Below, piece after piece: positions 85 through 23,928 of a stretch of DNA of 23,928 bases. The first letter of the stretch is position 1. Each line of letters opens with the position of its first letter. The notes beneath the pieces are model-generated. The model searched no databases and had not been told where the DNA came from. It worked only from the letters and a program-made list of their open reading frames with translations. The translations under genes and the position numbers were made by a program. This DNA comes from a virus (Duplodnaviria; Heunggongvirae; Uroviricota; Caudoviricetes): IMG/VR virus record IMGVR_UViG_2913123054_000001, positions 1-23,928 of that record, one strand, 5' to 3'.

Positions 85-104
85 CCCGCTTCGGCGGGTT
101 TTTT
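85..104 (+). terminator. Rho-independent terminator (CCCGC-UUCG-GCGGG stem-loop followed by TTTTTT)
   Basis: Perfect 5-bp GC stem 85-89/94-98 with a UUCG tetraloop and a T6 tract at 99-104; closes whatever transcript enters the window from upstream. Confidence 0.75.
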
Positions 105-266
105 ACTTTAACAGATCAAGTTTTAGCCGATTCGCCAATTAAACCGACCTTCGTTTGTTGATAAGCGGGTATGCCTGACTAGAATCGATTCACTTAAGTA
201 GCGCGCAGGGATAAGAGGGATGGACTCCTCTTTGGGGAGATGTTTAAAGTCCACAGGATTTTTACT

Positions 267-434
267 ATGAATGATAAGGAATTGATTATTGCGCTTTCTT
301 TACCAGGTCACTACGAAGTGATAACCCTCGAAAGCGGTGAGTTTATTGTAACGCCATTACCGCCAGATGCTATTCTAATTAGCAAAGAATCACATGCAGA
401 TTCTGCAAGTCACTTCTGTATCAAAGAAGACTAA
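267..434 (+). CDS. Small hypothetical protein (about 55 aa) in an AT-rich island
   Basis: ORF-track frame 240..434; ATG at 267 has AGGA about 9 nt upstream, while ATG at 240 has no usable spacing. The 121-490 segment is visibly AT-rich compared with the phage genes. No motif recognised. Confidence 0.35.
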   Translation: MNDKELIIALSLPGHYEVITLESGEFIVTPLPPDAILISKESHADSASHFCIKED

Positions 435-493
435 ATTATACTGGTAATGCCAGCCTGAACACCTGGCACCTGTCGCACCATTACGAGGTAGTA

Positions 494-1093
494 GTGGTGC
501 ATTTACAACTGGTCAAACAAACTTCTTCTGGTTTACTTCTCCCGGCGACGCCGGAGAGTTGCGATTTTCTGCATCAAATCAAAATAGGTGAGTGGATACA
601 CGCAGACTTTAAGCGTGTGCGTAACTACGCATTCCATAAGCGTTTTTTCAAACTTCTGCAACTCGGATTCGATTACTGGACTCCGGTCGGTGGGGCGATC
701 ACGCCTCGCGAACGAACACTGGTGTCAGGTTTCGTTGATTACCTGTGTGACTCGGTAGGCAGGGAACATACGCCAGCCCTGAGCGAAGCCGCAGAGCAAT
801 ATCTGAATACAGTTGCGACACGCAGAATCCGGGATACGGCATTGCTAAAGTCGTTTGAGGCTTTCCGCGAGTGGGTAACCATTCAGGCCGGATTTTACAC
901 CGAGCATTTTTATCCGGACGGTAGCCGAGGGCGTCGGGCGAAATCCATCGCGTTTGCGAATATGGACGAAACCGAGTTTCAGCAGGTTTATAAATCTGTA
1001 CTGAATGTGCTGTGGAACTGGATCCTGTTCCGTAAATTTTCCTCTCCGGAACAGGTCGAAAATGTGGCCGCGCAGCTGCTGGAGTTTGCGTAA
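494..1093 (+). CDS. DUF1367-like lambdoid nin-region protein
   Basis: 199-aa ORF with GTG start and GAGG 5 nt upstream; sequence character and position immediately upstream of a DUF1364/YbcO-like gene and Q match lambdoid nin-region organisation. Family assigned from memory. Confidence 0.7.
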   Translation: MVHLQLVKQTSSGLLLPATPESCDFLHQIKIGEWIHADFKRVRNYAFHKRFFKLLQLGFDYWTPVGGAITPRERTLVSGFVDYLCDSVGREHTPALSEAAEQYLNTVATRRIRDTALLKSFEAFREWVTIQAGFYTEHFYPDGSRGRRAKSIAFANMDETEFQQVYKSVLNVLWNWILFRKFSSPEQVENVAAQLLEFA

Positions 1094-1383
1094 TGGTGGA
1101 TTTACGTAAAGCGGCGCGGGGCCAGATGTGCCAGGTCAGAATCCCTGGCTACTGCAATCACAATCCCGAAACGTCTGTACTGGCGCATTACCGACTGGCG
1201 GGAACGTGCGGAACAGCGATAAAGCCACACGATATGCAGGCAGCGATTGCCTGTAGCTCGTGCCACGATTTAATCGACGGGCGGGTAAAAACCAGCGATT
1301 ACACCAAAGAAGAATTACGCCTGATGCATGCAGAAGGTGTTTTTCGCACACAAGAAATCTGGAGAAAGGAGGGATATTTATGA
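1093..1383 (+). CDS. DUF1364 / YbcO-like prophage protein (Cys-rich, putative nuclease-like nin-region protein)
   Basis: 96 aa beginning MVDLRKAARGQMCQVRIPGYCNHNPETSVLAH, with conserved Cys/His positions resembling DLP12 YbcO; start overlaps the upstream stop (TAATG coupling). Confidence 0.75.
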   Translation: MVDLRKAARGQMCQVRIPGYCNHNPETSVLAHYRLAGTCGTAIKPHDMQAAIACSSCHDLIDGRVKTSDYTKEELRLMHAEGVFRTQEIWRKEGYL

Positions 1384-1922
1384 TTTACCCAACGAATACA
1401 GGAAAAAGCGGAGAACACCTTCGTCTCACCACGCTGGAAAGTGTCTGGATTCAGGGGAAACTGCGCATGTGGGGGCGCTGGTCGTATATTGGCGGCGGTA
1501 AGACGGGAAATATGTTCAACCAGTTGCTGACCTCTAAAAAGCTGACAAAAACGGCAATTAACGAGGCGCTCCGGAGGATGAAAAAAGCAGGTCTGGACAA
1601 ACCTGAACTTGAGGCTTTTTTGCGGGATATGATCAACGGCAAGCAAAAAAGCTGGCTGGTGCATTGTACTGATGCAGAGGCGTTATGCATTGATCGGGTG
1701 ATTAGTGAAGTGCTGGCAGAGCATCCTGGATTGATTTTTATCCTCCGACAAAGATATGAAGGGCGGGGGATGAGTAAGCGTAAAATGGCTGAATTGCTGA
1801 ATGATGCACATCCTGAGTGGTGTTTTAGCACATGCGAAAAGCGAATTGCTAATTGGTTAGCCGTTGCTGAATATGCCCTGTATATTCCCATGCGGGAATC
1901 ATTTGCTCAAAAAATAGCTTGA
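1380..1922 (+). CDS. Putative late-gene antiterminator (Q-like)
   Basis: 180-aa ORF; ATG at 1380 overlaps the upstream stop (ATGA) with AAGGAGGG 5 nt upstream. Sits between nin-like genes and a terminator-rich leader preceding the lysis cassette, the canonical Q slot. Call rests on position more than on recognised sequence. Confidence 0.55.
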   Translation: MIYPTNTGKSGEHLRLTTLESVWIQGKLRMWGRWSYIGGGKTGNMFNQLLTSKKLTKTAINEALRRMKKAGLDKPELEAFLRDMINGKQKSWLVHCTDAEALCIDRVISEVLAEHPGLIFILRQRYEGRGMSKRKMAELLNDAHPEWCFSTCEKRIANWLAVAEYALYIPMRESFAQKIA

Positions 1923-2006
1923 TTTTTTACGCATAAACTGCTTCAATTCCGGCAAGCTTCGCAAAGCTGTATCGCGAGGCGAATCAAGCGCATGAACTTT
2001 ACCAGA

Positions 2007-2034
2007 ACCCGCCATTGAGCGGGTTTTGTTCTTT
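2007..2034 (+). terminator. Intrinsic terminator candidate 1 in late leader
   Basis: ACCCGC(2007-2012)/GCGGGT(2019-2024) stem, 6-nt loop, then a T-rich tract TTTGTTCTTT. Confidence 0.5.
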
Positions 2035-2038
2035 CTGA

Positions 2039-2061
2039 GGCTCGCTACGGCGGGCCTTTTT
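2039..2061 (+). terminator. Intrinsic terminator candidate 2 in late leader
   Basis: 7-bp stem 2039-2045/2050-2056 (one G-U pair), UACG loop, T5 tract at 2057-2061. Confidence 0.5.
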
Positions 2062-2150
2062 CATATCCGCGCCACGCCCGGCGCAAATCTGAATAACACC
2101 ACACAAAAGGCATCTGCGAATGCCGGTGCTTTTGACGGGGTGTTTTTTAC

Positions 2151-2172
2151 GGGCCGCTGGTGGCCCTTTTTT
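2151..2172 (+). terminator. Intrinsic terminator candidate 3 (tR'-like) immediately upstream of holin RBS
   Basis: GGGCC(2151-2155)/GGCCC(2162-2166) stem, 6-nt loop, T6 tract at 2167-2172; holin RBS CAGGAGA follows at 2178-2184. Confidence 0.6.
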
Positions 2173-2188
2173 ATTTACAGGAGATGTT

Positions 2189-2575
2189 ATGGCAGAACCA
2201 GTATCCGGCACGACACAGGCCGGGCTGGCTGTTGGCGGGGTAACCGTTGTCGGCCTGTTCGACTGGATTGAGCCAGGCGTATTAATCGGGGCTTTTGCAG
2301 GTTCCATTATTTTTGTTATGTCGGCGCGCGAATACCCGGTCTGGGGAAAATTGCTGCTTTTTATCGCGTCACTGATGGCGGGAATCGTCGCCGCGCCCTT
2401 CTCGTCTTCGGTTATCACTTTGCTTACACCGGAAAGCATTTCAGCCAGTCGTTCGGTTGGTGCGCTGGTGGCGTCTGCGGTATCGGTCCGCTTGTTAATG
2501 CTGTTGGGGAATGAGCCGTCATCATTATTTGGTCGGTTCTGGCCTAAAGGGAGAGGAGGCGATGGGGGTAAGTAA
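2189..2575 (+). CDS. Putative holin (multi-pass membrane protein)
   Basis: 128 aa from ATG 2189 with CAGGAGA RBS directly upstream; three to four hydrophobic helices and a charged C-terminal tail; first gene of the lysis cassette. Confidence 0.65.
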   Translation: MAEPVSGTTQAGLAVGGVTVVGLFDWIEPGVLIGAFAGSIIFVMSAREYPVWGKLLLFIASLMAGIVAAPFSSSVITLLTPESISASRSVGALVASAVSVRLLMLLGNEPSSLFGRFWPKGRGGDGGK

Positions 2576-2843
2576 TTTTATTCTTACGCTGAATGCGTTC
2601 ACCTGCGCCCTGATTGTTCTCGTCCTTCTTGCTTATCAACGAAGTGGCGCAAATTACTGCTGGAAGTCCTCTTTTTGCGCCTGGTTGCTGATGGTTGCCT
2701 GCGGCTCGGTAACCATCTTGATTCTGACCGGGGTCTATCGTCATCCAAGCATACCCGAAACCGTTATCAATATCGCACTGCTGGTGACTGTATGGGGTGC
2801 CAGGGGAAATATATCTCGACTGGTAAACAGCAGGAAGAATTAA
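2562..2843 (+). CDS. Second holin-like / antiholin-like small membrane protein
   Basis: 93 aa from ATG 2562 with GGGAGAGGAGG RBS; overlaps the holin 3' end by 14 nt; three predicted transmembrane segments. Confidence 0.55.
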   Translation: MGVSNFILTLNAFTCALIVLVLLAYQRSGANYCWKSSFCAWLLMVACGSVTILILTGVYRHPSIPETVINIALLVTVWGARGNISRLVNSRKN

Positions 2844-2855
2844 CAGGAAAATATC

Positions 2856-3398
2856 ATGACAAAAGACGAGATTTTTGATGCCGTTCTGGGTAAAGAGGGC
2901 GGCTACGTCAACCATCCGGATGATAAAGGTGGGCCGACCAAATGGGGCATTACGGAAAAAGTCGCCCGTGCGCACGGATATCAGGGTGATATGCGTGACC
3001 TGACGCGCGGGCAGGCGCTGGAAATACTCGAGGCGGATTACTGGTACGGCCCACGATTCGACCAGATTGCTAACCTGTCGCCGGATATTGCCGCAGAGCT
3101 GTGCGACACGGGCGTGAACATGGGACCAGCCGTGGCGTCCAGAATGTTTCAACGCTGGCTGAACGTTTTCAACCTGCGCGGGAAACTGTATCCGGATATG
3201 GATGCAGATGGACGTATCGGCCCACGAACTATTAATGCGTTACGGGCATATCTGAAAAATCGCGGCAGGGATGGCGAACGGGTAATGCTGACCGCACTGA
3301 ACTGTACGCAGGGTGAGCGCTATCTGGAGCTGGCAGAGAGACGGGAGGCCAACGAGTCGTTTGTCTACGGCTGGATGAAAGAGCGCGTGGCAGTTTAA
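2856..3398 (+). CDS. Endolysin, GH108-type N-terminal domain with C-terminal peptidoglycan-binding (PG_binding_3-like) domain
   Basis: 180 aa; N-terminal EGGYVNHPDDKGGPTKWGIT motif typical of GH108 lysozyme-like proteins; AGGAAAA RBS upstream; directly follows the holin genes. Confidence 0.8.
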   Translation: MTKDEIFDAVLGKEGGYVNHPDDKGGPTKWGITEKVARAHGYQGDMRDLTRGQALEILEADYWYGPRFDQIANLSPDIAAELCDTGVNMGPAVASRMFQRWLNVFNLRGKLYPDMDADGRIGPRTINALRAYLKNRGRDGERVMLTALNCTQGERYLELAERREANESFVYGWMKERVAV

Positions 3399-3502
3399 AA
3401 ACTGACGCTGAAGTGCTGAACACCCTCAACTTATTTCGGCTCTATTCTGAATTTACGATGGGCAAAAGTCAGGGTAATGGCGTCAGATGGCAAAAAGCAA
3501 AA

Positions 3503-3535
3503 ACCCCGGCTGCGGTAACAGTCCGGGGTTTTCTG
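3503..3535 (+). terminator. Rho-independent terminator downstream of endolysin (A-tract upstream, so possibly bidirectional)
   Basis: ACCCCGG(3503-3509)/CCGGGGT(3523-3529) stem with inner CUG/CAG pairing, then TTTTCTGTTTC; lies inside the N-terminal part of track ORF 3413..3748, arguing that ORF really starts at 3566. Confidence 0.6.
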
Positions 3536-3565
3536 TTTCTGGCCTTGGGTAAGACAAAGGAAAAC

Positions 3566-3748
3566 ATGACGAATTATAAACTAATTCTGTTGAGGTTGAC
3601 TATGAAAAACGGCCTTGAATTGAAAGCGCCTGTAACTGATGACATCAGCAGAGCGGTGGCTTTTGCCATTAAGTGGGTGGCGGTTGGTATCGCTGTGTCT
3701 CCGATGCTGTATGGGCTGGCAAAACTGGTCATTGCGGTGAAATCGTAA
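3566..3748 (+). CDS. Small membrane protein (60 aa, C-terminal transmembrane helix); lysis-associated or accessory, function unknown
   Basis: In-frame ATG at 3566 with AAGGAAAAC RBS immediately after the terminator; hydrophobic stretch AVAFAIKWVAVGIAVSPMLYGLAKLVIAV. Confidence 0.45.
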   Translation: MTNYKLILLRLTMKNGLELKAPVTDDISRAVAFAIKWVAVGIAVSPMLYGLAKLVIAVKS

Positions 3749-14690: not shown

Positions 14691-15131
14691 ATGTCTACCT
14701 ATTCTTTTATGGATGTCACTGCGACGCTGACCGGGCCGACCGGTTCGATTGACCTCGGGTACGGTTCTGCAAGTTCTGAAGAGGGGATTGTGGTTGCGAT
14801 GGGCGGTCCTAAAAACACCATGACCATCGGTGCTGATGGTGAAGTAATGCACAGTCTCCATGCAGATAAAAGCGGGACGATTACCGTTAACCTTCTGAAG
14901 ACATCACCGACAAATAAAAAATTGTCGCTGGCGTATAACGCACAGAGCCAGTCTTCTGCCACATGGGGGAATAACGTTATCGTGATTCGCAACAAGGTCA
15001 GCGGCGACATCATCACGGCACGCAGTGTTGCGTTCCAGAAACAACCGGATAACGCCAACGCTAAAACCGGTAATACGATGCCGTGGGTGTTTGACTGCGG
15101 CAAGATTGACCAGGTTCTCGGGGAGTTTTAA
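14691..15131 (+). CDS. Tail tube protein (DUF3277-like)
   Basis: 146-aa ORF between sheath and tail chaperone; GGGGAAG RBS. Confidence 0.75.
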   Translation: MSTYSFMDVTATLTGPTGSIDLGYGSASSEEGIVVAMGGPKNTMTIGADGEVMHSLHADKSGTITVNLLKTSPTNKKLSLAYNAQSQSSATWGNNVIVIRNKVSGDIITARSVAFQKQPDNANAKTGNTMPWVFDCGKIDQVLGEF

Positions 15132-15134
15132 TAC

Positions 15135-15587
15135 ATGGAATTCGAAATTAAAGGCGTGAAATATCGCGCGGCAAAACTCAGCGTTTTTGACCAGCTGAAA
15201 GTGACCCGCAAACTTCTGCCGGTACTGGCGGGAATGATGTCAGATTTCGGGAGTATTCGCTCCCGTTTGCCTGCTGATGGCAAAATCGACACCGTGAAAT
15301 TCGAGCAGTTAAAACCGGTGTTTGAAACCATGCTCCCGCGTATCGCTGAGGAACTGTCTTCCCTGACCGAAGATGACACCGATGCGATTATTCATCCCTG
15401 TCTTGCGGTGGTGTCGCGGCGTCATATGGACGGATGGGTGCCGGTATTTAGCCAGGGCGAACTGATGTTTGATGATATTGACCTGCTGGTCATGCTGCAG
15501 ATGGTGGCGCGGGTGGTCGCCGATTCGCTGGGAAATTTTTTGCAAGGACTCCCTATCAAAGAGACGCCCATCCCGCCAGCGGAATAA
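15135..15587 (+). CDS. Tail assembly chaperone (short, in-frame product)
   Basis: 150-aa ORF immediately upstream of the tape measure; contains slippery heptamer T_TTT_TTG and an open -1 frame extending to 15784. Confidence 0.75.
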   Translation: MEFEIKGVKYRAAKLSVFDQLKVTRKLLPVLAGMMSDFGSIRSRLPADGKIDTVKFEQLKPVFETMLPRIAEELSSLTEDDTDAIIHPCLAVVSRRHMDGWVPVFSQGELMFDDIDLLVMLQMVARVVADSLGNFLQGLPIKETPIPPAE

Positions 15588-15784
15588 CCTTCAATAGCCT
15601 GCCGGGTGGTGAAGATTTTATTCTTCGTCCGGCGCTTGCCTTCCATATTGACCAGAAAGATCTTAACAGTGGTGCGGTAGATCTCTGTCGCATCGCGCTT
15701 CTTAATGACTACCTTGATATGTGCGAGGACAACGATGTCCGGGTAGAAAAATGGAGAGAGGATAATGAACGCCGAGACTATTAA
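15135..15784 (+). CDS. Tail assembly chaperone, predicted -1 frameshift-extended isoform (about 216 aa)
   Basis: Joining frame 0 (15135-15542) to the -1 frame (to stop at 15782-15784) gives an extension with no stop codons; mirrors the G/GT arrangement upstream of tape measure genes. Confidence 0.5.
15536..15542 (+). promoter_or_regulatory. Candidate -1 programmed ribosomal frameshift site (slippery heptamer T_TTT_TTG)
   Basis: Zero-frame codons AAT TTT TTG; the -1 frame is open from 15452 to a TAA at 15782-15784, overlapping the tape measure start. Confidence 0.55.
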
Positions 15785-17753
15785 AGATTTCCTCGTCTCG
15801 CTTGGCTTCAGTGTGGATGATGCAGGAGCGAAAAAATTCGGTTCTGTCCTCGCCGGTACAACTGCAAATGTCATCAAAATGGGGCTGGCCGTCGAAGGAA
15901 CTGCTCTGTCCGTGGTGGCCTTCACGGCTAAGATCGCCTCCGGTCTGGATAATCTTTACTGGGCGTCACAGCGCACCGGCGCGACAGTCCAGGGAATTCA
16001 GTCTATTGGCTATGCGGTTTCGCAGGTTGGCGGCAGCGTGGACGCTGCGCGATCTTCTCTGGAAAACCTCTCCCGGTTTATTCGTAATAATCCCGGGGCG
16101 GAGGGATTTCTGAATCGTCTGGGGGTACAGACACGGGATGCCAGCGGTAACATGCGTGACATGGCCGCTATTTTTACAGGGGTAGGCCAGAAGCTCAGCG
16201 ACATGCCGTATTACCGTGCTAACCAGTATGCGCAGATGCTGGGCATTGACGAAAATACCCTGATGGCTGTGCGTCGCGGTGTGGGTGGCTTCTCCGGGCA
16301 GTACAGCGCAATGGCGAAAGCTATCGGCTTCAATGCTGACGAGGCGGCCAGAAGCTCCAACAAATTTATGACCTCCCTGCGTGAGTTTGGCGCGATGGCA
16401 GGCATGGCCCGTGACAAAATCGGCTCTAATCTTGCGGGTGGGCTTGCGGGTTCGCTGGACACTCTGCGCCGCCATATCCTGGACAACTTCCCGCGTATCG
16501 AGCAGACCCTGACGAAAGCTATAAAAGGCATTCTGGCGCTCGGGGATATTATCGGGCGGTTGTTCTTCAGACTGATTGAGGGGACATCAGGCCTCATCAC
16601 CTGGTGGCAATCGCTGGATAAGCAAACGCGGGAGTTGATCTCGCTGTTTGGCGCACTGACGATTGCGCTGCGCATTCTGAACAGTACGTTCTGGATGTCG
16701 CCGATTGGCCTCATTACCGCGCTGGCGGCGGGGATTGCCCTCCTGTGGGAGGACTATCAGACCTGGAAGGAAGGCGGCGACAGCCTGATTGACTGGGGCA
16801 AGTGGAAACCGGAGGTTGATGCCGCGCTGAAGATGGTTCGTGACCTTAAAACGACCGTTAACGACCTGGTGAAAGCGCTGGCGAAACTGCTCAATATTGA
16901 CCCCAAATCATGGTCCCTGAAGTGGGATTTCAGCAACTTCATCGACCAGATGGGCGAATTCAGCAAAATGCTGAACATGATCGCCGACCTGCTCAACGCT
17001 ATCAAAGATGGCCGCTGGGCTGATGCCGTCAGCATCGGCAAACAGATACTTAATCAGGGCAGCGAAAATCCGTCAGCGATGCCGATGGTTACAGACAGCG
17101 CTAACAGTACTGCCGACTGGATTAAAGAGCACTGGGGATTTGATCCCCGCAGTGTGGGCCGGACGGTACGCGGCTGGTTTGGTGATGATGAGCCGGAACA
17201 ACATGCACAGGCTACGAAACGAGGAGAACGGAATAACAATCCGGGAAATCTTAATTTTGCTGGTCAGGCTGGGGCTTCTCTTGAACGCCCGGGCGGGCGA
17301 TTTGCCAGATTTGAAACTGCTTTTGATGGATTACGGGCTCTTGCTCGTCAGTTAATGCTGTACGCCGGACGGGGAATAAACAGTGTGGAGAAAATTATCT
17401 CTACCTGGGCACCTGCGTCTGATAATAACAACACAACCGCGTATATCAGGGCTGTATCGCAACGACTGGGAGTGGATCCCCGGGCTGCCCTGAATATGAG
17501 CGATCCGCAAACCATGTCAGCATTGATGAGCAGCATTATCCAGCATGAGAATGGAAGAAATATCTATTCTCGAGAGCTGATTAATAAGGCTGCCGTGGCG
17601 GGAATTAGTGGCAAAGTGACAGAGGTTAACCAGCAAAATACCTACCACATTTACGGTGGCGGAGATCCGCACGCTGTCGGTAATGAGGTTGCACGTCGGC
17701 AACAGTCTGCAAATGCTCAGGTCATGCGAAGTAATCAGGTGAGGGTGAGTTAG
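15765..17753 (+). CDS. Tail tape measure protein (662 aa) with a distinct C-terminal domain
   Basis: Long Ala/Gly/Leu-rich helical ORF after the chaperone pair, RBS GGAGAGAGG; C-terminal about 150 aa (NNNPGNLNF...FETAFDGLRALARQLMLYAGRG...) looks like a separate globular domain. Confidence 0.8.
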   Translation: MNAETIKDFLVSLGFSVDDAGAKKFGSVLAGTTANVIKMGLAVEGTALSVVAFTAKIASGLDNLYWASQRTGATVQGIQSIGYAVSQVGGSVDAARSSLENLSRFIRNNPGAEGFLNRLGVQTRDASGNMRDMAAIFTGVGQKLSDMPYYRANQYAQMLGIDENTLMAVRRGVGGFSGQYSAMAKAIGFNADEAARSSNKFMTSLREFGAMAGMARDKIGSNLAGGLAGSLDTLRRHILDNFPRIEQTLTKAIKGILALGDIIGRLFFRLIEGTSGLITWWQSLDKQTRELISLFGALTIALRILNSTFWMSPIGLITALAAGIALLWEDYQTWKEGGDSLIDWGKWKPEVDAALKMVRDLKTTVNDLVKALAKLLNIDPKSWSLKWDFSNFIDQMGEFSKMLNMIADLLNAIKDGRWADAVSIGKQILNQGSENPSAMPMVTDSANSTADWIKEHWGFDPRSVGRTVRGWFGDDEPEQHAQATKRGERNNNPGNLNFAGQAGASLERPGGRFARFETAFDGLRALARQLMLYAGRGINSVEKIISTWAPASDNNNTTAYIRAVSQRLGVDPRAALNMSDPQTMSALMSSIIQHENGRNIYSRELINKAAVAGISGKVTEVNQQNTYHIYGGGDPHAVGNEVARRQQSANAQVMRSNQVRVS

Positions 17754-18340
17754 TGGATATTCTCTCTACACTTTTTCATCAGCAGAGCAGAAAAATAGGA
17801 ATGATTGTTCCCAGTGTTGTTATTTCAGAGAAGCATACAGATATGCTTGAAATAACCGAGCATCCGGTAGAAGTCGGGGCCGCTGTCGCTGATCATGCCT
17901 ATAAAAAACCGTCAGAAGTGGTGATGGAGGTTGGTTTCGCCGGTGGCGGCGCATTGCTGGATTTTGCCAGTAATCTGACGGCTACCAGCCTGCTCGGCCT
18001 GAGTCCTCAGCAGACGTATCAGGAGCTACTGGATCTGCAGGAAAGCCGTATCCCCTTCGATGTGGTAACCGGTAAACGGCTGTACAGCAACATGTTGATC
18101 CGGGCGCTGGAAGTGACGACGGACAAGACAACCGAAAACGTCCTGTCCGCCGTCCTCACCCTGAGGGAGGTCATTATCTCCCGGACACAGCAGATTACCG
18201 TCGCGGATAAAACCAACATGAAGGAAGGGGCCAGCACGTCGGCGGTACAGAACAGCGGCAACAAAACCACAAAGCCTCCAGATACTTCACTGCTGAAAAG
18301 CATCACGGGTAACGTGGCGTCATTACTGGGGGGCGGCTAA
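17753..18340 (+). CDS. Baseplate/tail protein (195 aa; possibly DNA-circularisation-like or tail-tip protein)
   Basis: ORF translationally coupled to the tape measure (stop/start overlap); position only. Confidence 0.5.
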   Translation: MDILSTLFHQQSRKIGMIVPSVVISEKHTDMLEITEHPVEVGAAVADHAYKKPSEVVMEVGFAGGGALLDFASNLTATSLLGLSPQQTYQELLDLQESRIPFDVVTGKRLYSNMLIRALEVTTDKTTENVLSAVLTLREVIISRTQQITVADKTNMKEGASTSAVQNSGNKTTKPPDTSLLKSITGNVASLLGGG

Positions 18341-18642
18341 TGACAATTCAGGAAATTCCGCTGACAGCGGACAACCAGCAGTTCAGCATCGTCCTGGGTG
18401 GTGTCACCTGGCGGATTAGCATCATATGGCGCGATCTGTACTGGATTATGGACCTGCAGAACGACAGAGGGGAGCCGGTAATCTCCGGTATTCCTCTTGT
18501 CACTGGTGCTGACCTGCTGGCGCAGTACGCCTGTATGGGGCTTGGTTTTAAGCTGGTGGTGGTCTGTGATGACAACACACAGGATTACCCCACAAAAACT
18601 GACCTGGGCGGTCGCAGCCATTTACTGGTATCAACGGAGTAA
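18340..18642 (+). CDS. Small baseplate/tail protein (100 aa)
   Basis: ORF overlapping the upstream stop (TAATG); position between tape measure and hub. Confidence 0.5.
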   Translation: MTIQEIPLTADNQQFSIVLGGVTWRISIIWRDLYWIMDLQNDRGEPVISGIPLVTGADLLAQYACMGLGFKLVVVCDDNTQDYPTKTDLGGRSHLLVSTE

Positions 18643-18644
18643 GC

Positions 18645-19709
18645 ATGTCACAGAACTGGATGAGACATTTCGAGCTGCAGCTTGTGGACGGGAACGGTCA
18701 GGGAATTGAGCTAAGTGATTTCAAAGTCACCTTTACGATCGACTGGTTCAACATCAGCAGCGCGTCCCGGGTAGGGACTATCAAAATTTATAACCTCTCG
18801 GCAGATACTGTGAACCGAATCACCGGGCAGGAGTTTTCGAAAGTGCGTCTGATTGCGGGTTACGACGGTATCGCGCCGGAGGTGTCGGCAAGCGACGTCG
18901 GGACAGTGCGGGAAGTTGACGCGGCGGACGTGGGCCAGAGTGATGGCCGCAACTACGGACTGATTTTCAGCGGTGAAATTCGCTACTCGGTCACAGGAAA
19001 AGACAGTCCGGTTGATTCCTACGTCCTGATTCAGGCAGCAGATACTGATCTGGCTTTTGCCACCAGTATAACCTCACAGACGCTGGCTGCCGGTTACACG
19101 GTCGCTGATGTGAACCGTGCGCTGATGAAAGACTTCGAAGCCAAAGGTGCGACCGAAGGCCTGACGCCTGAAATGCCTGCTACTGTATTCCCCCGGGGGC
19201 GGGTGCTCTTTGGCATGACGCGGCATCTAATGGATAACGTAGCCGGGCAATGTGGCGCAACATGGCAATTCGTGGATGGTCAACGCCAGATGGTGGCGAA
19301 TAACGAATATGTTCACGAAGCGATTGTGCTCAACAGCGCTACCGGGCTTATTGGAATGCCGCAGCAGACTATCGGTAACGGCGTAAACGTCCGCGCGCTT
19401 ATTAATCCGAACATCCGGGTTAACGGACTCATTCAGCTGGATCAGGCTTCCGTGTATCGTACCGCCTTGTCGAACAACGATATTGCGATGGCTGGTGGTC
19501 AGATCACCGACCAGAACACGGATGGAAATATCACGCTAAGCGGCACCACATCGCAGCCTGCCAGCATCGCAACGGATGGCGTTTATATTGTGCGCGGGAT
19601 TATGTACACTGGCGACACAAGGGGCCAGGCGTGGTACATGGATATGATGTGCTTTGCTCGAGGTGCTAGTGATATTCCTAGCCAGTCAGCGATGAATCGA
19701 GGTGCATAA
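18645..19709 (+). CDS. Baseplate hub protein (P2 gpD / Mu gp44-like)
   Basis: 354-aa ORF in the hub position, upstream of the spike, wedge and J-like genes; size matches gpD-like hub proteins. Confidence 0.6.
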   Translation: MSQNWMRHFELQLVDGNGQGIELSDFKVTFTIDWFNISSASRVGTIKIYNLSADTVNRITGQEFSKVRLIAGYDGIAPEVSASDVGTVREVDAADVGQSDGRNYGLIFSGEIRYSVTGKDSPVDSYVLIQAADTDLAFATSITSQTLAAGYTVADVNRALMKDFEAKGATEGLTPEMPATVFPRGRVLFGMTRHLMDNVAGQCGATWQFVDGQRQMVANNEYVHEAIVLNSATGLIGMPQQTIGNGVNVRALINPNIRVNGLIQLDQASVYRTALSNNDIAMAGGQITDQNTDGNITLSGTTSQPASIATDGVYIVRGIMYTGDTRGQAWYMDMMCFARGASDIPSQSAMNRGA

Positions 19710-19711
19710 TA

Positions 19712-20437
19712 GTGAGCAGGCTTGCGATAACCACAATCGTATTTTCTCTTTTTTTAACTTCATGTAGTTGGGATCCTAATGGTGCTAAAGCGCAGGAAAA
19801 ATGGCTATCCCAAAAAAATGAAGAAAAACAAGCGTACGATAAGCAAGTTGAGGAGAGCCAGAAAAGCAGGCTTCAAATACAGCGCGAAGAAAAGTCTCAA
19901 TTTGAAGTTTCACATCCAGAGGTTATCGTTGCTGGTGTTGGGAACGAGCTTACAAGTAAGGGTGCAGAATCTTTGCGAGATGCGTACAACAGCATTCCAT
20001 TCGTAACTCGTTATCCGGGAACCACGGACCCTAACAAAGTTTATACCTATGTCGGTGACTACAAATTAAATTTGCAACTGGTTAACACATCTGTGCTTTC
20101 TCAGATCTCAGATTGCAAACGCATTTCAGCGTATGCCGATGTTGATATTAATCGTACTTGCTTCAATCAAATTGGAAATGATTTGAGTTTGTTTGCATCT
20201 GTAATTAAAGACAAAAATATTACCGGAATTGCAAAAAAAGCAGCTCTACGAGACTCAACTTACGGAACCAAAATTGATTTTGGTCATGCTGCGCGTTTAG
20301 CAAAAATGCATGCCACTTTATGCCAAAAGCAGGGCGGTAAAGGATTTGTCAAAATGTCGACTGTAGCTGTGCCTTGCGGCTCTTCAGGCGATGTAATTAA
20401 CTATCGAAGCGCCGGTAAGATGGGGCTTATAAACTGA
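19712..20437 (+). CDS. AT-rich moron: predicted lipoprotein (241 aa; lipobox LTSC; Lys/Glu/Gln-rich linker followed by a Cys-containing globular domain), function unknown
   Basis: GTG start with GAGGTG RBS at 19696-19701; N-terminus MSRLAITTIVFSLFLTSC is a type II signal peptide with Ser at +2. The first 60 nt are about 38% G+C and the whole gene looks markedly AT-rich against its neighbours; followed by its own strong terminator. Confidence 0.7.
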   Translation: MSRLAITTIVFSLFLTSCSWDPNGAKAQEKWLSQKNEEKQAYDKQVEESQKSRLQIQREEKSQFEVSHPEVIVAGVGNELTSKGAESLRDAYNSIPFVTRYPGTTDPNKVYTYVGDYKLNLQLVNTSVLSQISDCKRISAYADVDINRTCFNQIGNDLSLFASVIKDKNITGIAKKAALRDSTYGTKIDFGHAARLAKMHATLCQKQGGKGFVKMSTVAVPCGSSGDVINYRSAGKMGLIN

Positions 20438-20461
20438 AAAGATCAAATTAGTCACATAAAA

Positions 20462-20483
20462 CCCGCCGGATGGCGGGTTTTTT
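20462..20483 (+). terminator. Rho-independent terminator following the lipoprotein moron
   Basis: CCCGCC(20462-20467)/GGCGGG(20472-20477) stem with GGAU loop and T6 tract at 20478-20483; A-tract upstream suggests possible bidirectional function. Confidence 0.75.
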
Positions 20484-20502
20484 GCTTTCTGGAGCCTACT
20501 AA

Positions 20503-21255
20503 ATGGCAGTATCTGACCAGACTCGCAGCGGCGACCTTGCCGAAACATTCAAATCTGAACGGGAAACAACAAAGAACCAGATCCGTGTCGCCTTGCCTGG
20601 CATTATTCAGTCATTCGATCCTGATGCGGTGACGGCAGTTGTGCAGCCTGCTATCCGTTCGGTTGAAAAGGATAATGACGGCAACCGCATTACCAAAAAT
20701 TACCCATTGCTGGTGGATGTGCCAGTGGTATTCCCGCGTGGCGGAGGATGTACGCTAACGTTTCCGATTAAATCCGGTGATGAGTGTTTGGTGATTTTTG
20801 CCGATCGTTGTATTGATTTCTGGTGGCAGAGTGGCGGGATACAGGAGCCGGTTGATGACAGAATGCATGATTTATCGGATGCGTTTTGTATTGTAGGTCC
20901 CCAGTCGCAGGCGAGGAAGATTAGCGGTATTAATACCAGTGCCACACAGTTGCGTAGTGACGACGGCAGCACCTATTTTGAGCTTAATCCTGATACCAGG
21001 AAAATTAAAATTGTCGCTCCGGGTGGTCTTGATGTGGTTGCCCCTCTGGCTGATTTTTCTGAGAAAGTAACCATTCATGGCCTGTTAACCTGGATGGGTG
21101 GCATGGTGGGGTCTGTTGTTTCTGGTGTGGCTTCAAAAATCACTGGTGCTGTTGAGTTTTTGGGTAGCGTGAAGGCTAACGGCAAGCCAATCGATGATAC
21201 GCACACTCATGGCGGTGTTCAGCGCGGTGGAAGCAATACCGACGGAGTAAACTGA
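20503..21255 (+). CDS. Baseplate central spike protein (P2 gpV / Mu gp45-like)
   Basis: 250-aa ORF with Gly-rich C-terminal region (HTHGGVQRGGSNTDG) typical of gpV-like spike apex domains; precedes the wedge and J-like genes. Confidence 0.65.
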   Translation: MAVSDQTRSGDLAETFKSERETTKNQIRVALPGIIQSFDPDAVTAVVQPAIRSVEKDNDGNRITKNYPLLVDVPVVFPRGGGCTLTFPIKSGDECLVIFADRCIDFWWQSGGIQEPVDDRMHDLSDAFCIVGPQSQARKISGINTSATQLRSDDGSTYFELNPDTRKIKIVAPGGLDVVAPLADFSEKVTIHGLLTWMGGMVGSVVSGVASKITGAVEFLGSVKANGKPIDDTHTHGGVQRGGSNTDGVN

Positions 21256-21608
21256 TGCGATACAGACGTGAAGACGCCGATGGCGATTACACCTTTGGCA
21301 GCGGTGATGACACCTGGCTGATTAACTCACCGGAGGCCGTGGCGCAGGCGGTAAAAACGCGATTCGAATTGTGGTATGGGCAATGGTTTCTTGATACCAC
21401 AGAGGGAACACCGTGGATCCAGTCCGTGCTGGGCAGGCAAAAACCGGAAACTTACAACCTGGCGATCAGAAAACGCATCCTCGAAACGCGGGGCGTTAAA
21501 TCAATCCTCTCTTTCAATACGACGGTGGATACCACGACCCGACGTGTCATGTTTTCCGCTGAAATCGACACTCTTTATGGAATAACGACTGTTACATCGG
21601 AGGCGTAA
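21255..21608 (+). CDS. Baseplate wedge protein (gp25/W-like or Mu gp46-like)
   Basis: 117-aa ORF translationally coupled on both sides (TGATG upstream, TAATG downstream); position and size. Confidence 0.55.
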   Translation: MRYRREDADGDYTFGSGDDTWLINSPEAVAQAVKTRFELWYGQWFLDTTEGTPWIQSVLGRQKPETYNLAIRKRILETRGVKSILSFNTTVDTTTRRVMFSAEIDTLYGITTVTSEA

Positions 21609-22807
21609 TGGCTCTGAACCTTGATTCTCTCGGTTTATCTGCAAAGGTAACCGCGGAGGGGATCAGTGCGCCTGATTATCAGACGATACTCAGCACCCTG
21701 ATTAGCTATTTTCAGCAGATTTATGGTAGTGATGCCTACCTCGAACCGGACAGCAAAGACGGCCAGATGGTGGCTCTGATGGCGCTGGCGATTCATGATG
21801 CCAATAATACTGCGATAACTGTCTACAACTGTTTTTCACCGGCAACTGGCTATGGTGCTGCACTGACCAGTAACGTGAAAATAAATGGTATTTCACGTAA
21901 AGGCGCGACGAACTCTACGGTTGATTTGCTTCTTACAGGAACTGCCGGAACAACCATCATTAATGGCAGCGTGAAAGATGGTAATAATGTGATATGGCGT
22001 TTGCCTGCTTCAGTGGTGGTCGGCGTGGATGGTACAGTGATGGTGACCGCAACATGTTCCGTCAGTGGTGCAGTGGCGGCGCTGGCTGGAACTATCACTG
22101 AAATTAATACGCCAACCCGTGGCTGGGTTTCGGTAACCAATCCTGCTGCGGCTACTGTAGGCACTCCAGCAGAAACTGACGCTGAGTTACGTATTCGCCA
22201 GTCGCAAAGTGTTGCGTTGCCATCAATAACCCCATTTGAAGCACTGGATGGCGCTGTTTCTAATGTTGCCGGTGTAACCCGCCACAAACTCTATGAAAAC
22301 GATACTGGTTCGGAGGACGGTAACGGGTTACCGCCACACTCTGTTGCTGTAATTGTGGATGGCGGTAATGTGACGGATATTGCTCAGGCTATCAGAGGGA
22401 ATAAAGGCCAGGGGACAGCCACTCACGGTACAACATCCGTTACGGTTCCGGATAAATACGGCAATCCCCATGTAATCAAATTCTCGCGTTCCAGTGATGT
22501 GCCTGTTTATGCCCGGATTAAATTAAAAGTTTTTACAGGTTATACATCACAGATAGGGCAGCAGATCCAGCAGGCTATTTCCGACTATATCAATAGTCTG
22601 ACGATCGGTGATTCGGTCCTTTTAAGTCGCATTTACTCACCGGCGAATCTTGGCGTGGTGAGTGGCGGGAATGCACGCTATTACGATATTCAGGAACTGA
22701 CGATTGGGAAATCCCCGGGGGCTTTGTCGTCATCAAACATTGATATCAGATACAACGAATCTGCGTCCTGTACCCCGGAGAATATCGTTATAACGGTGGA
22801 GTCATGA
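21608..22807 (+). CDS. Baseplate J-like protein (P2 gpJ / Mu gp47-like)
   Basis: 399-aa ORF in the canonical baseplate J position; coupled to flanking genes. Confidence 0.7.
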   Translation: MALNLDSLGLSAKVTAEGISAPDYQTILSTLISYFQQIYGSDAYLEPDSKDGQMVALMALAIHDANNTAITVYNCFSPATGYGAALTSNVKINGISRKGATNSTVDLLLTGTAGTTIINGSVKDGNNVIWRLPASVVVGVDGTVMVTATCSVSGAVAALAGTITEINTPTRGWVSVTNPAAATVGTPAETDAELRIRQSQSVALPSITPFEALDGAVSNVAGVTRHKLYENDTGSEDGNGLPPHSVAVIVDGGNVTDIAQAIRGNKGQGTATHGTTSVTVPDKYGNPHVIKFSRSSDVPVYARIKLKVFTGYTSQIGQQIQQAISDYINSLTIGDSVLLSRIYSPANLGVVSGGNARYYDIQELTIGKSPGALSSSNIDIRYNESASCTPENIVITVES

Positions 22808-23484
22808 GCAAATACACCGAACTAATCACGAACTACCACGCCACCAAACCTAAATTTCTTGCGCATGTTGATCTGATGACCCGGCCGCTTATTGATGTTG
22901 CGGCTGCGACCAGAGGGCTGATTACTGCATTTGATATTGACTCTGCGGTTGGTGTGCAACTTGACATTCTGGGATTGTGGATCGGACGTAGCCGTGTTGT
23001 CAGCCAGCCTATCTCAGGTGTCTATTTCAGCTGGGATACCGACGGGCTTGGATATGATCAGGGGGTATGGCAGGGGCCATATGATCCTGATTCCGGATAC
23101 ATGTATCTCAGCGATGAAACTTATCGTGTCATTCTTAAAGCGAAGATTGCGATTAATAACTGGGACGGACGGAATGATTCGCTTCCGGCAATTCTTGACG
23201 CGGCAACAGCAGGATCCGGGCTGCGCATGCAGATAGTCGATAACCAGGACATGACGATATCGGTCTGGGTCTTTCCTGATACGGATATTTCAGATGTATC
23301 GCGTGAGTTAATTGCGGCAATTAAACAGGGGTATCTCACAGTAAAAGCCGCCGGGGTATGGGCGGGTGGCATTGAAACACCTTCGGTGGAAACCCCATCG
23401 GAAGGCTCAAATTTTTTTGGTTTTGATATGGATAACGAATTCATCAGTGGTTTTGATGTAGGAGCATGGGGAGTATTACTCTGA
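22804..23484 (+). CDS. Baseplate protein (DUF2612-like, Mu gp48 / P2 gpI-like)
   Basis: 226-aa ORF between the J-like and tail fibre genes; ATGA overlap with the upstream gene. Confidence 0.6.
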   Translation: MSKYTELITNYHATKPKFLAHVDLMTRPLIDVAAATRGLITAFDIDSAVGVQLDILGLWIGRSRVVSQPISGVYFSWDTDGLGYDQGVWQGPYDPDSGYMYLSDETYRVILKAKIAINNWDGRNDSLPAILDAATAGSGLRMQIVDNQDMTISVWVFPDTDISDVSRELIAAIKQGYLTVKAAGVWAGGIETPSVETPSEGSNFFGFDMDNEFISGFDVGAWGVLL

Positions 23485-23928
23485 TGGCGAAAAATGATTT
23501 TAAAGCGTTTGCAACGGATCGAAATGCCAATGTTATATCGCAGGAGGAATGGGAAGCGTTGCCCACGCTTTTATCCGGATTTACAGCAGGGAAAGCATCC
23601 AGTGCGCAAGTCAATAAGGTTATTCGGCAGGCCAGCTTTATAGCAGCAGCACTTGCACAGTACACAGCAAACAAAAGCGGACTGGATGTATTGGATGATG
23701 GCGACCTGAATGGGTTCATTACCAAAATGTCTTCTGCGTTCGGTAAGGATTATCAGGCGCTTGATGCCACGTTGACGGCTCTGGCAGGACTGGCGACTGG
23801 GGCAAATAAGCTACCGTATTTCACTGGCACAGATAAGGCCGCGCAGACCGACCTCACTAAGGTAGGCCGTGATATTATCGGCAAAAATACTATTGCTGAC
23901 ATTCTCGCATACCTTGGTTTGGGAGAAG
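23484..23928 (+). CDS. Tail fibre protein, N-terminal part (continues beyond the window)
   Basis: ATG 23484 overlapping the upstream stop; open to the window end (at least 148 codons); the N-terminus resembles the conserved baseplate-attachment region of P2 H-like / Mu S-like fibres. Confidence 0.65.
   Translation, partial: MAKNDFKAFATDRNANVISQEEWEALPTLLSGFTAGKASSAQVNKVIRQASFIAAALAQYTANKSGLDVLDDGDLNGFITKMSSAFGKDYQALDATLTALAGLATGANKLPYFTGTDKAAQTDLTKVGRDIIGKNTIADILAYLGLGE

Follow-up and report, generated by a model that had tools for sequence, protein, structure and literature searches.

Phage genes that exclude other phages at the cell envelope have been described within tail regions, as in case of HK97 gp15 (PMC3594210), T5 Llp (PMC9586334) and Ltp of the Streptococcus thermophilus phage TP-J34 (PMC3952083). 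Exclusion by gp15 depends on the tail of the incoming phage and not on receptor blocking (PMC3594210), and Ltp is a surface lipoprotein which blocks DNA entry (PMC3952083). Llp and the Cor proteins of phi80, N15 and HK022 are outer-membrane lipoproteins, encoded among or beside tail genes, which exclude at the envelope (PMC9586334; PMC3594210). Further, the P2/P4 hotspots of antiviral systems are a fixed site in temperate myophages where unrelated cargo, defence systems included, alternates on near-identical backbones (PMC9122126). In our study, a 23,928-nucleotide stretch of phage DNA (IMG/VR record IMGVR_UViG_2913123054_000001, positions 1 to 23,928; hereafter the window) was analysed, which represents a SEN34/Brunovirus-like temperate myophage of E. 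coli and carries a gene for a predicted lipoprotein of 241 residues between its baseplate hub and spike genes. This gene was found to occupy the first of two slots of a cargo hotspot, a slot which, judged from its occupants, is reserved for exported proteins. Envelope-level superinfection exclusion, acting through a conserved target rather than through the receptor of the phage's own fibre, is the role that we tentatively favour for the lipoprotein.

The locus shares features with each of these systems and differs from all of them. HK97 gp15 and the window gene are both accessory genes of deviant G+C content between the tail genes of a temperate coliphage, with an envelope product that is predicted in our case. 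Whereas gp15 is a small inner-membrane relative of YebO with its own promoter and terminator and has been shown to be expressed from the prophage, the window protein is a 241-residue lipoprotein of another family, its terminator belongs to the phage backbone and no promoter was detected. Llp and Cor have approximately 60-80 residues and bind FhuA, the receptor of the carrier phage; in comparison, the window protein has no sequence match to them and no link to fibre type, and it possesses a long helical stalk and a 174-residue domain. A relationship to Llp or Cor was not supported by any match in Pfam, function-annotated PHROGs, PADLOC or the PDB fold comparison. Ltp is similar in having a lipid anchor, a linker and globular domains, and its reported target is the tape-measure protein; it differs in its Gram-positive host and in the position of its gene in the lysogeny module. 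T4 Spackle is a periplasmic phage protein which neutralises the tail-tip lysozyme of incoming phages. It differs in being small, soluble and helical, in coming from a virulent phage and in being encoded outside the baseplate block, and the PDB fold comparison showed no structural similarity between it and the lipoprotein. The hub-spike junction resembles the P2/P4 hotspots in its alternating cargo and in the presence of PD-Lambda-1 in slot 2 but, unlike them, it lies within the baseplate operon of another lineage and has the hub 3' tail and a conserved terminator as its limits. The features of the locus are given below in window coordinates.

18645-19709, + strand: baseplate hub gene, left flank of the hotspot (PF22759 E217_GP41; phrog_196 baseplate hub, E 6.8e-88)
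19653-19709, + strand: variable 3' tail of the hub gene (last ~17-19 codons), left edge of the exchangeable cassette, swapping with the slot-1 gene
19699-19704, + strand: Shine-Dalgarno-like GAGGTG, 7 nucleotides 5' of the lipoprotein GTG start (read directly from the sequence)
19712-20437, + strand: lipoprotein gene, GTG start, open reading frame (ORF) of 241 residues; occupant of slot 1, family 3 of the survey
19712-19765, + strand: type II signal peptide with lipobox LTSC, Cys18 predicted to be lipidated and Ser19 at +2 (from the sequence)
19775-19912, + strand: predicted single long Q/E/K-rich helix, residues 22-67, stalk or linker (AlphaFold2 (AF2) model and composition)
19913-20434, + strand: globular alpha/beta 'domain B', residues 68-241, with conserved Cys 135, 150, 204 and 222
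20458-20483, + strand: intrinsic-terminator-like hairpin and T6 (from a scan), backbone element and right edge of the hotspot, directly 5' of the spike ribosome-binding site
20503-21255, + strand: baseplate spike gene, right flank of the hotspot (PF18352, E 2.7e-44, and Apex motif; ribosome-binding site GGAG at 20491-20494)

Around hub and spike lie Dit-like, plug, sheath-initiator-like and J-like baseplate genes. The junction was surveyed in 160 loci retrieved via the spike protein, taking the best 80 spike matches per collection, and the 155 loci with both hub and spike were analysed. The hub-spike gap ranged from 0 to 2827 bp over these loci, with 135 unique gap sequences and 75 ORF clusters. 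In 18 more distant relatives, with hubs of at most 57% identity, the two genes are adjacent or overlap and the gap does not exceed 124 bp, and it is 352-2827 bp in the remaining junctions. E. coli prophages with 96-98% identical hubs hold other genes at the same site. A 113-residue protein and a DUF4282 protein are found at the junction of strain 97-3250, and two hypothetical proteins each at those of phages vB_EcoM-689R2 and SEN34. The adjacency in distant relatives and the other cargo beside near-identical hubs bear out the initial annotation of the gene as accessory cargo. Among 5426 complete E. coli genomes the junction was present in 305-307, and the lipoprotein gene in 12 only, at 99.4-99.6% identity; strain NCTC9022 (NZ_LR134237.1) has a locus of 99.4% identity.

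The cargo is arranged in two slots. In more than 90% of the unique occupied junctions, the slot-1 ORF starts between -10 and +7 nucleotides from the hub stop. Of the 119 first ORFs in these junctions, at least 98 show a signal peptide or lipobox, compared with 27 of the 160 ORFs that come later, and some of the slot-1 misses are failures of the detection heuristic. The slot-1 occupants include secreted proteins of approximately 113 residues (family 0, 108 loci, phrog_3443), the lipoprotein family itself (family 3, 14 loci), secreted proteins of 158-182 residues (family 14), lipoproteins of 288-374 residues (family 18) and a secreted protein family of 80 residues (family 24). Slot 1 is lacking or holds a truncated copy in some close relatives and is absent from more distant ones. 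Slot 2 is empty in the window and holds very variable cargo in other loci, including DUF4282 and membrane proteins and a YafO toxin module. In a Rouxiella locus (L073) the lipoprotein in slot 1 is followed by the two-gene pair that is commonest in slot 2, so that the lipoprotein replaces family 0 rather than adding to it. As far as the sequences allow, slot 1 is reserved for exported proteins, and selection probably keeps it filled.

Several observations were made on the slot-2 cargo itself. A 409-residue T5orf172/MUG113 protein at positions 490-1719 of the gap in L026, also present in L028 and L048, matches PD-Lambda-1 (PADLOC, E 5e-83), and one more pair was read, by eye only, as Phd/Doc-like. 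The commonest slot-2 pair, found in 31 loci (for example L012, and L011 at 737-1887 of the gap), encodes one protein of ~257-266 residues (phrog_17809, weak TPR match) and one of ~126-142 residues (phrog_5176). Neither protein has a PADLOC match, and the RAYYxxYH motif of the smaller one looks HEPN-like by eye; the pair is a candidate defence pair.

The N-terminus of the window lipoprotein, MSRLAITTIVFSLFLTSC, shows a positive start, a hydrophobic core and the lipobox L-T-S-C with Ser at +2, and agrees with the pattern [LVI][ASTVI][GAS]C (MSR-LAITTIVFSLF-LTSC). Cys18 is invariant across 14 lipoprotein homologs (alignment A1), which confirms the type II signal peptide proposed initially. In Enterobacterales, Asp at +2 blocks sorting to the outer membrane (the Lol avoidance rule); the +2 residue of the homologs is S, G, R or A, and D in none. 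All these features fit a protein predicted to be anchored in the outer membrane and to face the periplasm. Residues 21-67 contain 8 Q, 8 E and 7 K among 47 residues, and besides the lipid Cys18 there are four Cys, at 135, 150, 204 and 222. In the full-length AF2 model (predicted local distance difference test, pLDDT, 85.5), a disordered signal peptide is followed by one helix at residues 22-67 (pLDDT 87-94) and an alpha/beta globular domain. The Lys/Glu/Gln-rich linker and 4-Cys globular domain described earlier are thus upheld by the composition, the Cys positions and the model. The domain-only model, made from a 38-sequence alignment, reached a pLDDT of 95.6 and a predicted template modelling score (pTM) of 0.89. 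PDB sequence profiles gave nothing for the lipoprotein, and one viral protein only matched in BFVD (E 2.7e-3). Within the libraries searched, domain B as modelled would be a fold without a solved relative. The C-terminus of the protein, ...SAGKMGLIN, lacks a hydrophobic segment.

The export signal bears on whether the lipoprotein could be a structural protein of the virion baseplate. Its position in the baseplate block, where the family is conserved in several phages, would suit such a role. The invariant lipobox Cys and the Sec-type signal of every homolog are incompatible with cytoplasmic assembly, and the gene is dispensable in relatives and is swapped for unrelated exported proteins; a virion role is hence very improbable. 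Since a Sec-exported protein cannot be part of the virion, the lipoprotein would have its site of action in the cell envelope, during infection or in the lysogen.

The initial annotation had described the gene as ending at a strong intrinsic terminator of its own. The hairpin at 20458-20481 is real, having 10 bp (6 G-C), a 4-nucleotide loop and a following T6, with a free energy of -16 to -17.5 kcal/mol, but it does not belong to the gene. Hairpin and T-run are kept upstream of the spike in relatives with different cargo, being seen at 86 of the 95 distinct junctions with cargo and at 6 of the 16 without, where the spacer of 39-87 bp is essentially the hairpin alone. Because it is kept with any cargo and in some empty junctions, the terminator is an element of the phage backbone. 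A consensus scan of the + strand from 15000 to 23928, which a weak or non-canonical promoter could escape, gave no sigma-70-like site, and no convincing -35/-10 pair was seen by eye within 19640-19711. The GTG start lies 2 nucleotides past the TAA stop of the hub gene. With this spacing and no sigma-70-like promoter found, the suggestion that the gene is likely expressed from the prophage is unsupported. The arrangement places the gene for co-transcription with, and translational coupling to, the hub, and points to co-expression with the late tail operon. A further feature of the window is relevant here.

1260-1922, + strand: Q-like antiterminator gene (phrog_753 anti-termination protein Q-like, E 5.8e-79)

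As this antiterminator is encoded in the genome, late transcription is expected to pass the internal terminator, and transcripts without antitermination would stop at the backbone hairpin. The Q profile match starts at residue 41 of the listed ORF, so the true Q start probably lies further downstream. The same region carries a NinB/Orf recombination mediator gene (494-1093), followed by an HNH endonuclease gene (1093-1383) which overlaps the listed Q-like ORF.

The close coupling of the gene to the hub within a late operon that depends on Q, with no promoter detected, and the filled state of slot 1 in most SEN34-like phages would also agree with a lytic-cycle envelope function without defence, such as lysis modulation, outer-membrane disruption or particle release, in which case slot 1 would be a semi-core late gene. 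This role is considered unlikely, as the lysis cassette sits elsewhere (2120-3748), the lipoprotein has neither a C-terminal transmembrane segment nor a partner i-spanin, and some close relatives have no slot-1 gene or a truncated one, the more distant relatives having none. Moreover, unrelated families alternate in the slot and family 0 is unusually diverse, which looks like diversifying recognition rather than housekeeping, and one standalone chromosomal homolog exists. A separate candidate, an o- or u-spanin, was rejected for this protein of 241 residues, which lies outside the lysis cassette, has no C-terminal hydrophobic segment and carries a folded domain.

The base composition was found to be deviant over the whole gene. 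Its first 60 nucleotides have 38.3% G+C, in agreement with the value of about 38% from which the gene had been called visibly AT-rich. The difference remains significant for the complete gene, which has 41.2% G+C against 51.5% for the window (z = -4.1), and the lowest non-overlapping 726-bp segment elsewhere in the window (45.6%) is still above it. G+C at third codon positions is 34.7% in the lipoprotein gene against 45-63% in the other genes checked. Every lipoprotein homolog is 7-15 G+C points under its own hub, and so is nearly all of the junction cargo. As AT-richness is common to all homologs and nearly all cargo, it is therefore a stable property.

The homologs of the lipoprotein form a small superfamily. 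Its direct homologs fall in 15 clusters among 5.8 billion proteins, and a profile search of 1.84 billion representatives recovered 36 relatives, including long lipoproteins and the family-14-type domain, with superfamily profile matches at whole-library E-values of 4e-91 to 4e-4. The motif of domain B, which follows a signal peptide or lipobox, is C-x5-(S/A)AY-x(6-8)-C ... KDxxI(S/T) ... F(G/S)H(A/W)A(R/G)(L/M)A (alignments A1 and A3). A remote domain type was reached by profile in P0041, P0043, P0044, P0046 and P0049 (E 1.5e-9 to 4.4e-4). When profile A3 was compared with 314 cargo ORFs, it matched family 3, all four family-14 proteins (E 2e-13 to 4e-10) and, in family 18, only the L051 member; the comparison of families 3 and 14 by hhalign, with few sequences, was suggestive only (P = 0.005), and the relation was settled by the whole-library profile and A3. 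Family 18 shows one N-terminal lipoprotein module fused either to domain B (L051) or to the 'domain A' of family 0 (L020 and L078), the C-terminus of the latter two being family 0 by hhalign (99.9%). There are thus two head domains, type A in the ~113-residue secreted proteins and type B in the lipoprotein and its relatives, and either one joins the common N-terminal module. The interchange of two heads on one scaffold in one slot argues for equivalent jobs.

All phage-borne members with readable context lie in the baseplate-centre block (plug, hub and spike) of E217/PhiTE/SEN34-type myophage tails. Homologs of 38-44% identity occur in the same hub-spike slot beside hubs of 46-62% identity (L005-L007, L008/L052 from Limnobaculum, and L073), L174 has a 358-residue long form at this place, and L001 also carries a domain-B gene there. 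In Hafnia phage yong1 the family-14-like protein gp67 directly follows the hub, and in L170 and L171, where hub and spike overlap, a remote relative is found one gene upstream, between plug and hub. The initial annotation recognised no family for the protein; the gene can now be assigned to this superfamily of 36 representatives tied to the baseplate block. The lipoprotein diverges roughly in step with the baseplate genes, which makes it an old resident of the lineage and not a recent import. Its earlier description as horizontally acquired has to be revised, because the 38-44% homologs at the same slot fit long residence with cassette swapping among relatives better than recent import.

Searches by tblastn with the lipoprotein against 50,697 phage records gave no match, and with the remote relatives P0041 and P0046 gave Hafnia phage yong1 only. 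Pfam, NCBIfam, PADLOC and PHROGs had no match for the lipoprotein except a PHROG at the level of the signal peptide (E 0.005). The name 'HMG-box domain-containing protein', given to lipoprotein copies by the Prokaryotic Genome Annotation Pipeline (PGAP) in NZ_CM136170.1, NZ_AP042480.1 and NZ_AP042548.1 (H14, H21 and H22), where the named protein is assumed to be the lipoprotein, was rejected as there is no Pfam match at E up to 0.01. If this assumption holds, our guess is that the name is an artefact of the Lys/Glu-rich helix. One relative, P0031, is a 378-residue long form at L173:5001-6137 (Logan SRR31860673 contig), beside GntR regulators, a dehydratase and an aldose epimerase. No phage genes were present in the 5 kb upstream and the contig ends 320 bp downstream; P0031 may be a domesticated chromosomal copy.

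These results can be set against the classical view of a self-contained moron (a Juhala/Hendrix-type element as summarised in PMC3594210), that is, a unit acquired recently together with a promoter and a terminator of its own, whose prophage-expressed product serves host fitness or conversion, for instance serum resistance, adhesion or stress tolerance. The additional DNA separating genes which lie side by side in some relatives, the strongly deviant G+C content and the downstream terminator agree with it. Lipoprotein morons of the lambda type, such as Bor, do exist. The moron explanation is nevertheless doubtful here, since the terminator is a backbone feature common to all cargo types and to some empty junctions, no promoter-like site was found on the + strand ahead of a gene starting 2 nucleotides past the hub stop, and the 38-44% homologs at the same slot of divergent phages make the gene old in the lineage. 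Further, all homologs with readable context but one lie in the baseplate block, which would be odd for a generic host-fitness gene.

The edges of the exchanged DNA could be placed closely. Similarity to prophages with other cargo ends at approximately 19652, within the hub gene, and resumes at 20455-20472, exactly at the hairpin. The hub C-terminal tails vary by cassette type (CFARGASDIPSQSAMNRGA versus CEARGAADL...), and hub residues 251-354 are the only neighbouring segment which separates the lipoprotein loci from the rest. This co-variation of the hub tail was rejected as evidence of interaction, because the tail lies inside the swapped cassette and would simply hitch-hike. At L062:330-2463 (Pseudescherichia vulneris NBRC 102420, contig BBMZ01000043), four tandem slot-1 units of 70-96% identity were observed. 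Each unit of ~625 nucleotides, spaced at 613-634 nucleotides, consists of a hub 3' remnant and a family-0 secreted-protein gene; with a period above 500 nucleotides, the array was missed by Tandem Repeats Finder and was seen in a separate repeat search. As the copies have diverged it is not likely to be an assembly artefact, and it looks like the footprint of cassette exchange via recombination in the hub 3' end.

For superinfection exclusion, the mechanism we favour can be outlined as follows. The lipoprotein would be produced along with the late tail genes by Q-mediated antitermination, pass through Sec, receive its lipid at Cys18 and be sorted by Lol to the outer membrane, where two disulfide bonds may stabilise it. 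Entry of an incoming phage would then be blocked at the envelope, through binding of the lipoprotein either to a conserved component of the envelope or to the tail tip of that phage, rather than through masking of the receptor of the carrier's own tail fibre. The slot-1 alleles are diverse, the median identity within family 0 being 64% in phages with hubs of at least 95% identity to the window hub. Together with the stacking in L062 and the head swapping, this diversity suggests a recognition function under diversifying pressure. The neighbouring slot 2 carries defence (PD-Lambda-1) and toxin-antitoxin genes in other loci.

Masking of the outer-membrane receptor of the phage's own fibre, in the manner of Llp and Cor, would prevent both superinfection and the loss of progeny on debris. 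A predicted outer-membrane lipoprotein among tail genes, probably expressed late, is what progeny protection would call for, and precedents are known in T5 Llp, encoded beside the pb5 gene (PMC9586334), and in Cor (PMC3594210). However, a lipoprotein of at least 98% identity occurs in prophages with at least five different, unrelated fibre tips, three of which are also found in family-0 prophages, and the protein is approximately three times larger than Llp or Cor and has no Pfam match. The presence of the same lipoprotein with many fibre tips disfavours a strict Llp/Cor model, and a conserved target fits better. Receptor masking matched to the phage's own receptor-binding protein, one of the roles proposed at first, is accordingly regarded as improbable.

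A narrower form of the exclusion mechanism is a Spackle-like periplasmic inhibitor, which would bind and neutralise the part of related incoming tails that degrades the cell wall or penetrates the membrane (the C-terminal lysin domain of the tape-measure protein, the hub or the spike) and would thus exclude the phage's own kind. The tie of the superfamily to the baseplate-centre block, whether at hub-spike or plug-hub, the tape-measure annotation in relatives (lytic transglycosylase or SLT-domain protein), and the association of slot-1 families with the conserved backbone rather than with the variable fibres are consistent with it. The predicted periplasmic location and the conserved Cys pairs, which suggest disulfide bonds, would also fit, and a precedent exists in T4 Spackle (named in PMC9586334 and PMC9936078). 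Neither the C-terminal region of the tape-measure protein nor the spike co-varied with the lipoprotein, however, and this sub-case is rather unlikely. The same low likelihood is attached to its extension to the whole of slot 1, in which a so far unrecognised class of modular envelope proteins, with two exchangeable heads on an optional lipoprotein scaffold, would neutralise the penetration machinery (tape-measure lysin, hub or spike) of incoming related myophages. Such an own-kind exclusion system would stay beside its target genes, much like a toxin-immunity pair, and would explain why an exported protein is kept at this exact spot across Enterobacterales phages.

Against superinfection exclusion in general stand several points. 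PADLOC-DB 2.0 returned 0 families for the lipoprotein at E up to 1 and the PDB fold comparison of its domain gave no match; with no family match or structural relative, the function assigned rests on context and analogy. Lysogen expression, which is required for classic exclusion, is unsupported as no promoter was detected, and a role confined to the lytic cycle would suit the tight hub coupling just as well. Beyond the hub tail, the lipoprotein did not co-vary with any neighbour, nor with the fibre tip, so that no target can be named. In addition, close relatives are over-represented in the survey on which the slot pattern is based.

AT-rich envelope cargo inside a tail operon is already a known kind of element. 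What is new, within the libraries and literature searched, is the superfamily with its fold, its tie to the baseplate block and the two-slot layout with a backbone terminator. The literature searched yielded nothing specific on the hotspot, on SEN34/Brunovirus accessory genes or on baseplate-linked lipoproteins, and no description of a first slot reserved for exported proteins. SEN34-like prophages are common, the junction being present in ~6% of complete E. coli genomes with relatives across Enterobacterales. Should slot 1 hold envelope-level exclusion factors, these would be a new family whose fold has no solved relative and which shapes what phages can enter these hosts, a point of importance for phage therapy and prophage ecology. 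A hub-coupled exported protein, free cargo and a backbone terminator would then provide a genomic rule for finding envelope and cytoplasmic defence genes. Whatever the function, a conserved position for exported proteins inside a baseplate operon lacks an explanation, and it can be tested directly.

Besides the lysis cassette, the window also carries terminase and portal genes, and a few minor observations were made on its tail genes. The tape-measure protein (15765-17753) has 662 residues, and its C-terminal region is annotated as 'lytic transglycosylase' by PGAP in E. coli 97-3250 and as 'transglycosylase SLT domain protein' in Hafnia phage yong1; this region is a possible periplasmic target of the slot-1 proteins. 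Upstream of it, a small DUF6889 ORF comes after the tail assembly chaperone gene and overlaps the tape-measure start (window 15135-15925; L001:1536-2185), this being the usual place of a programmed frameshift product. The downstream tail fibre (window 23484-23928; L001:9885-12438) is extremely mosaic, the 107 complete fibres falling into 80 clusters by their C-termini. The fibre gene of strain NRZ14408 carries the annotation of a truncated pseudogene; behind it come a tail-fibre assembly gene and an opposite-strand acyltransferase gene, the latter possibly serving lysogenic conversion.

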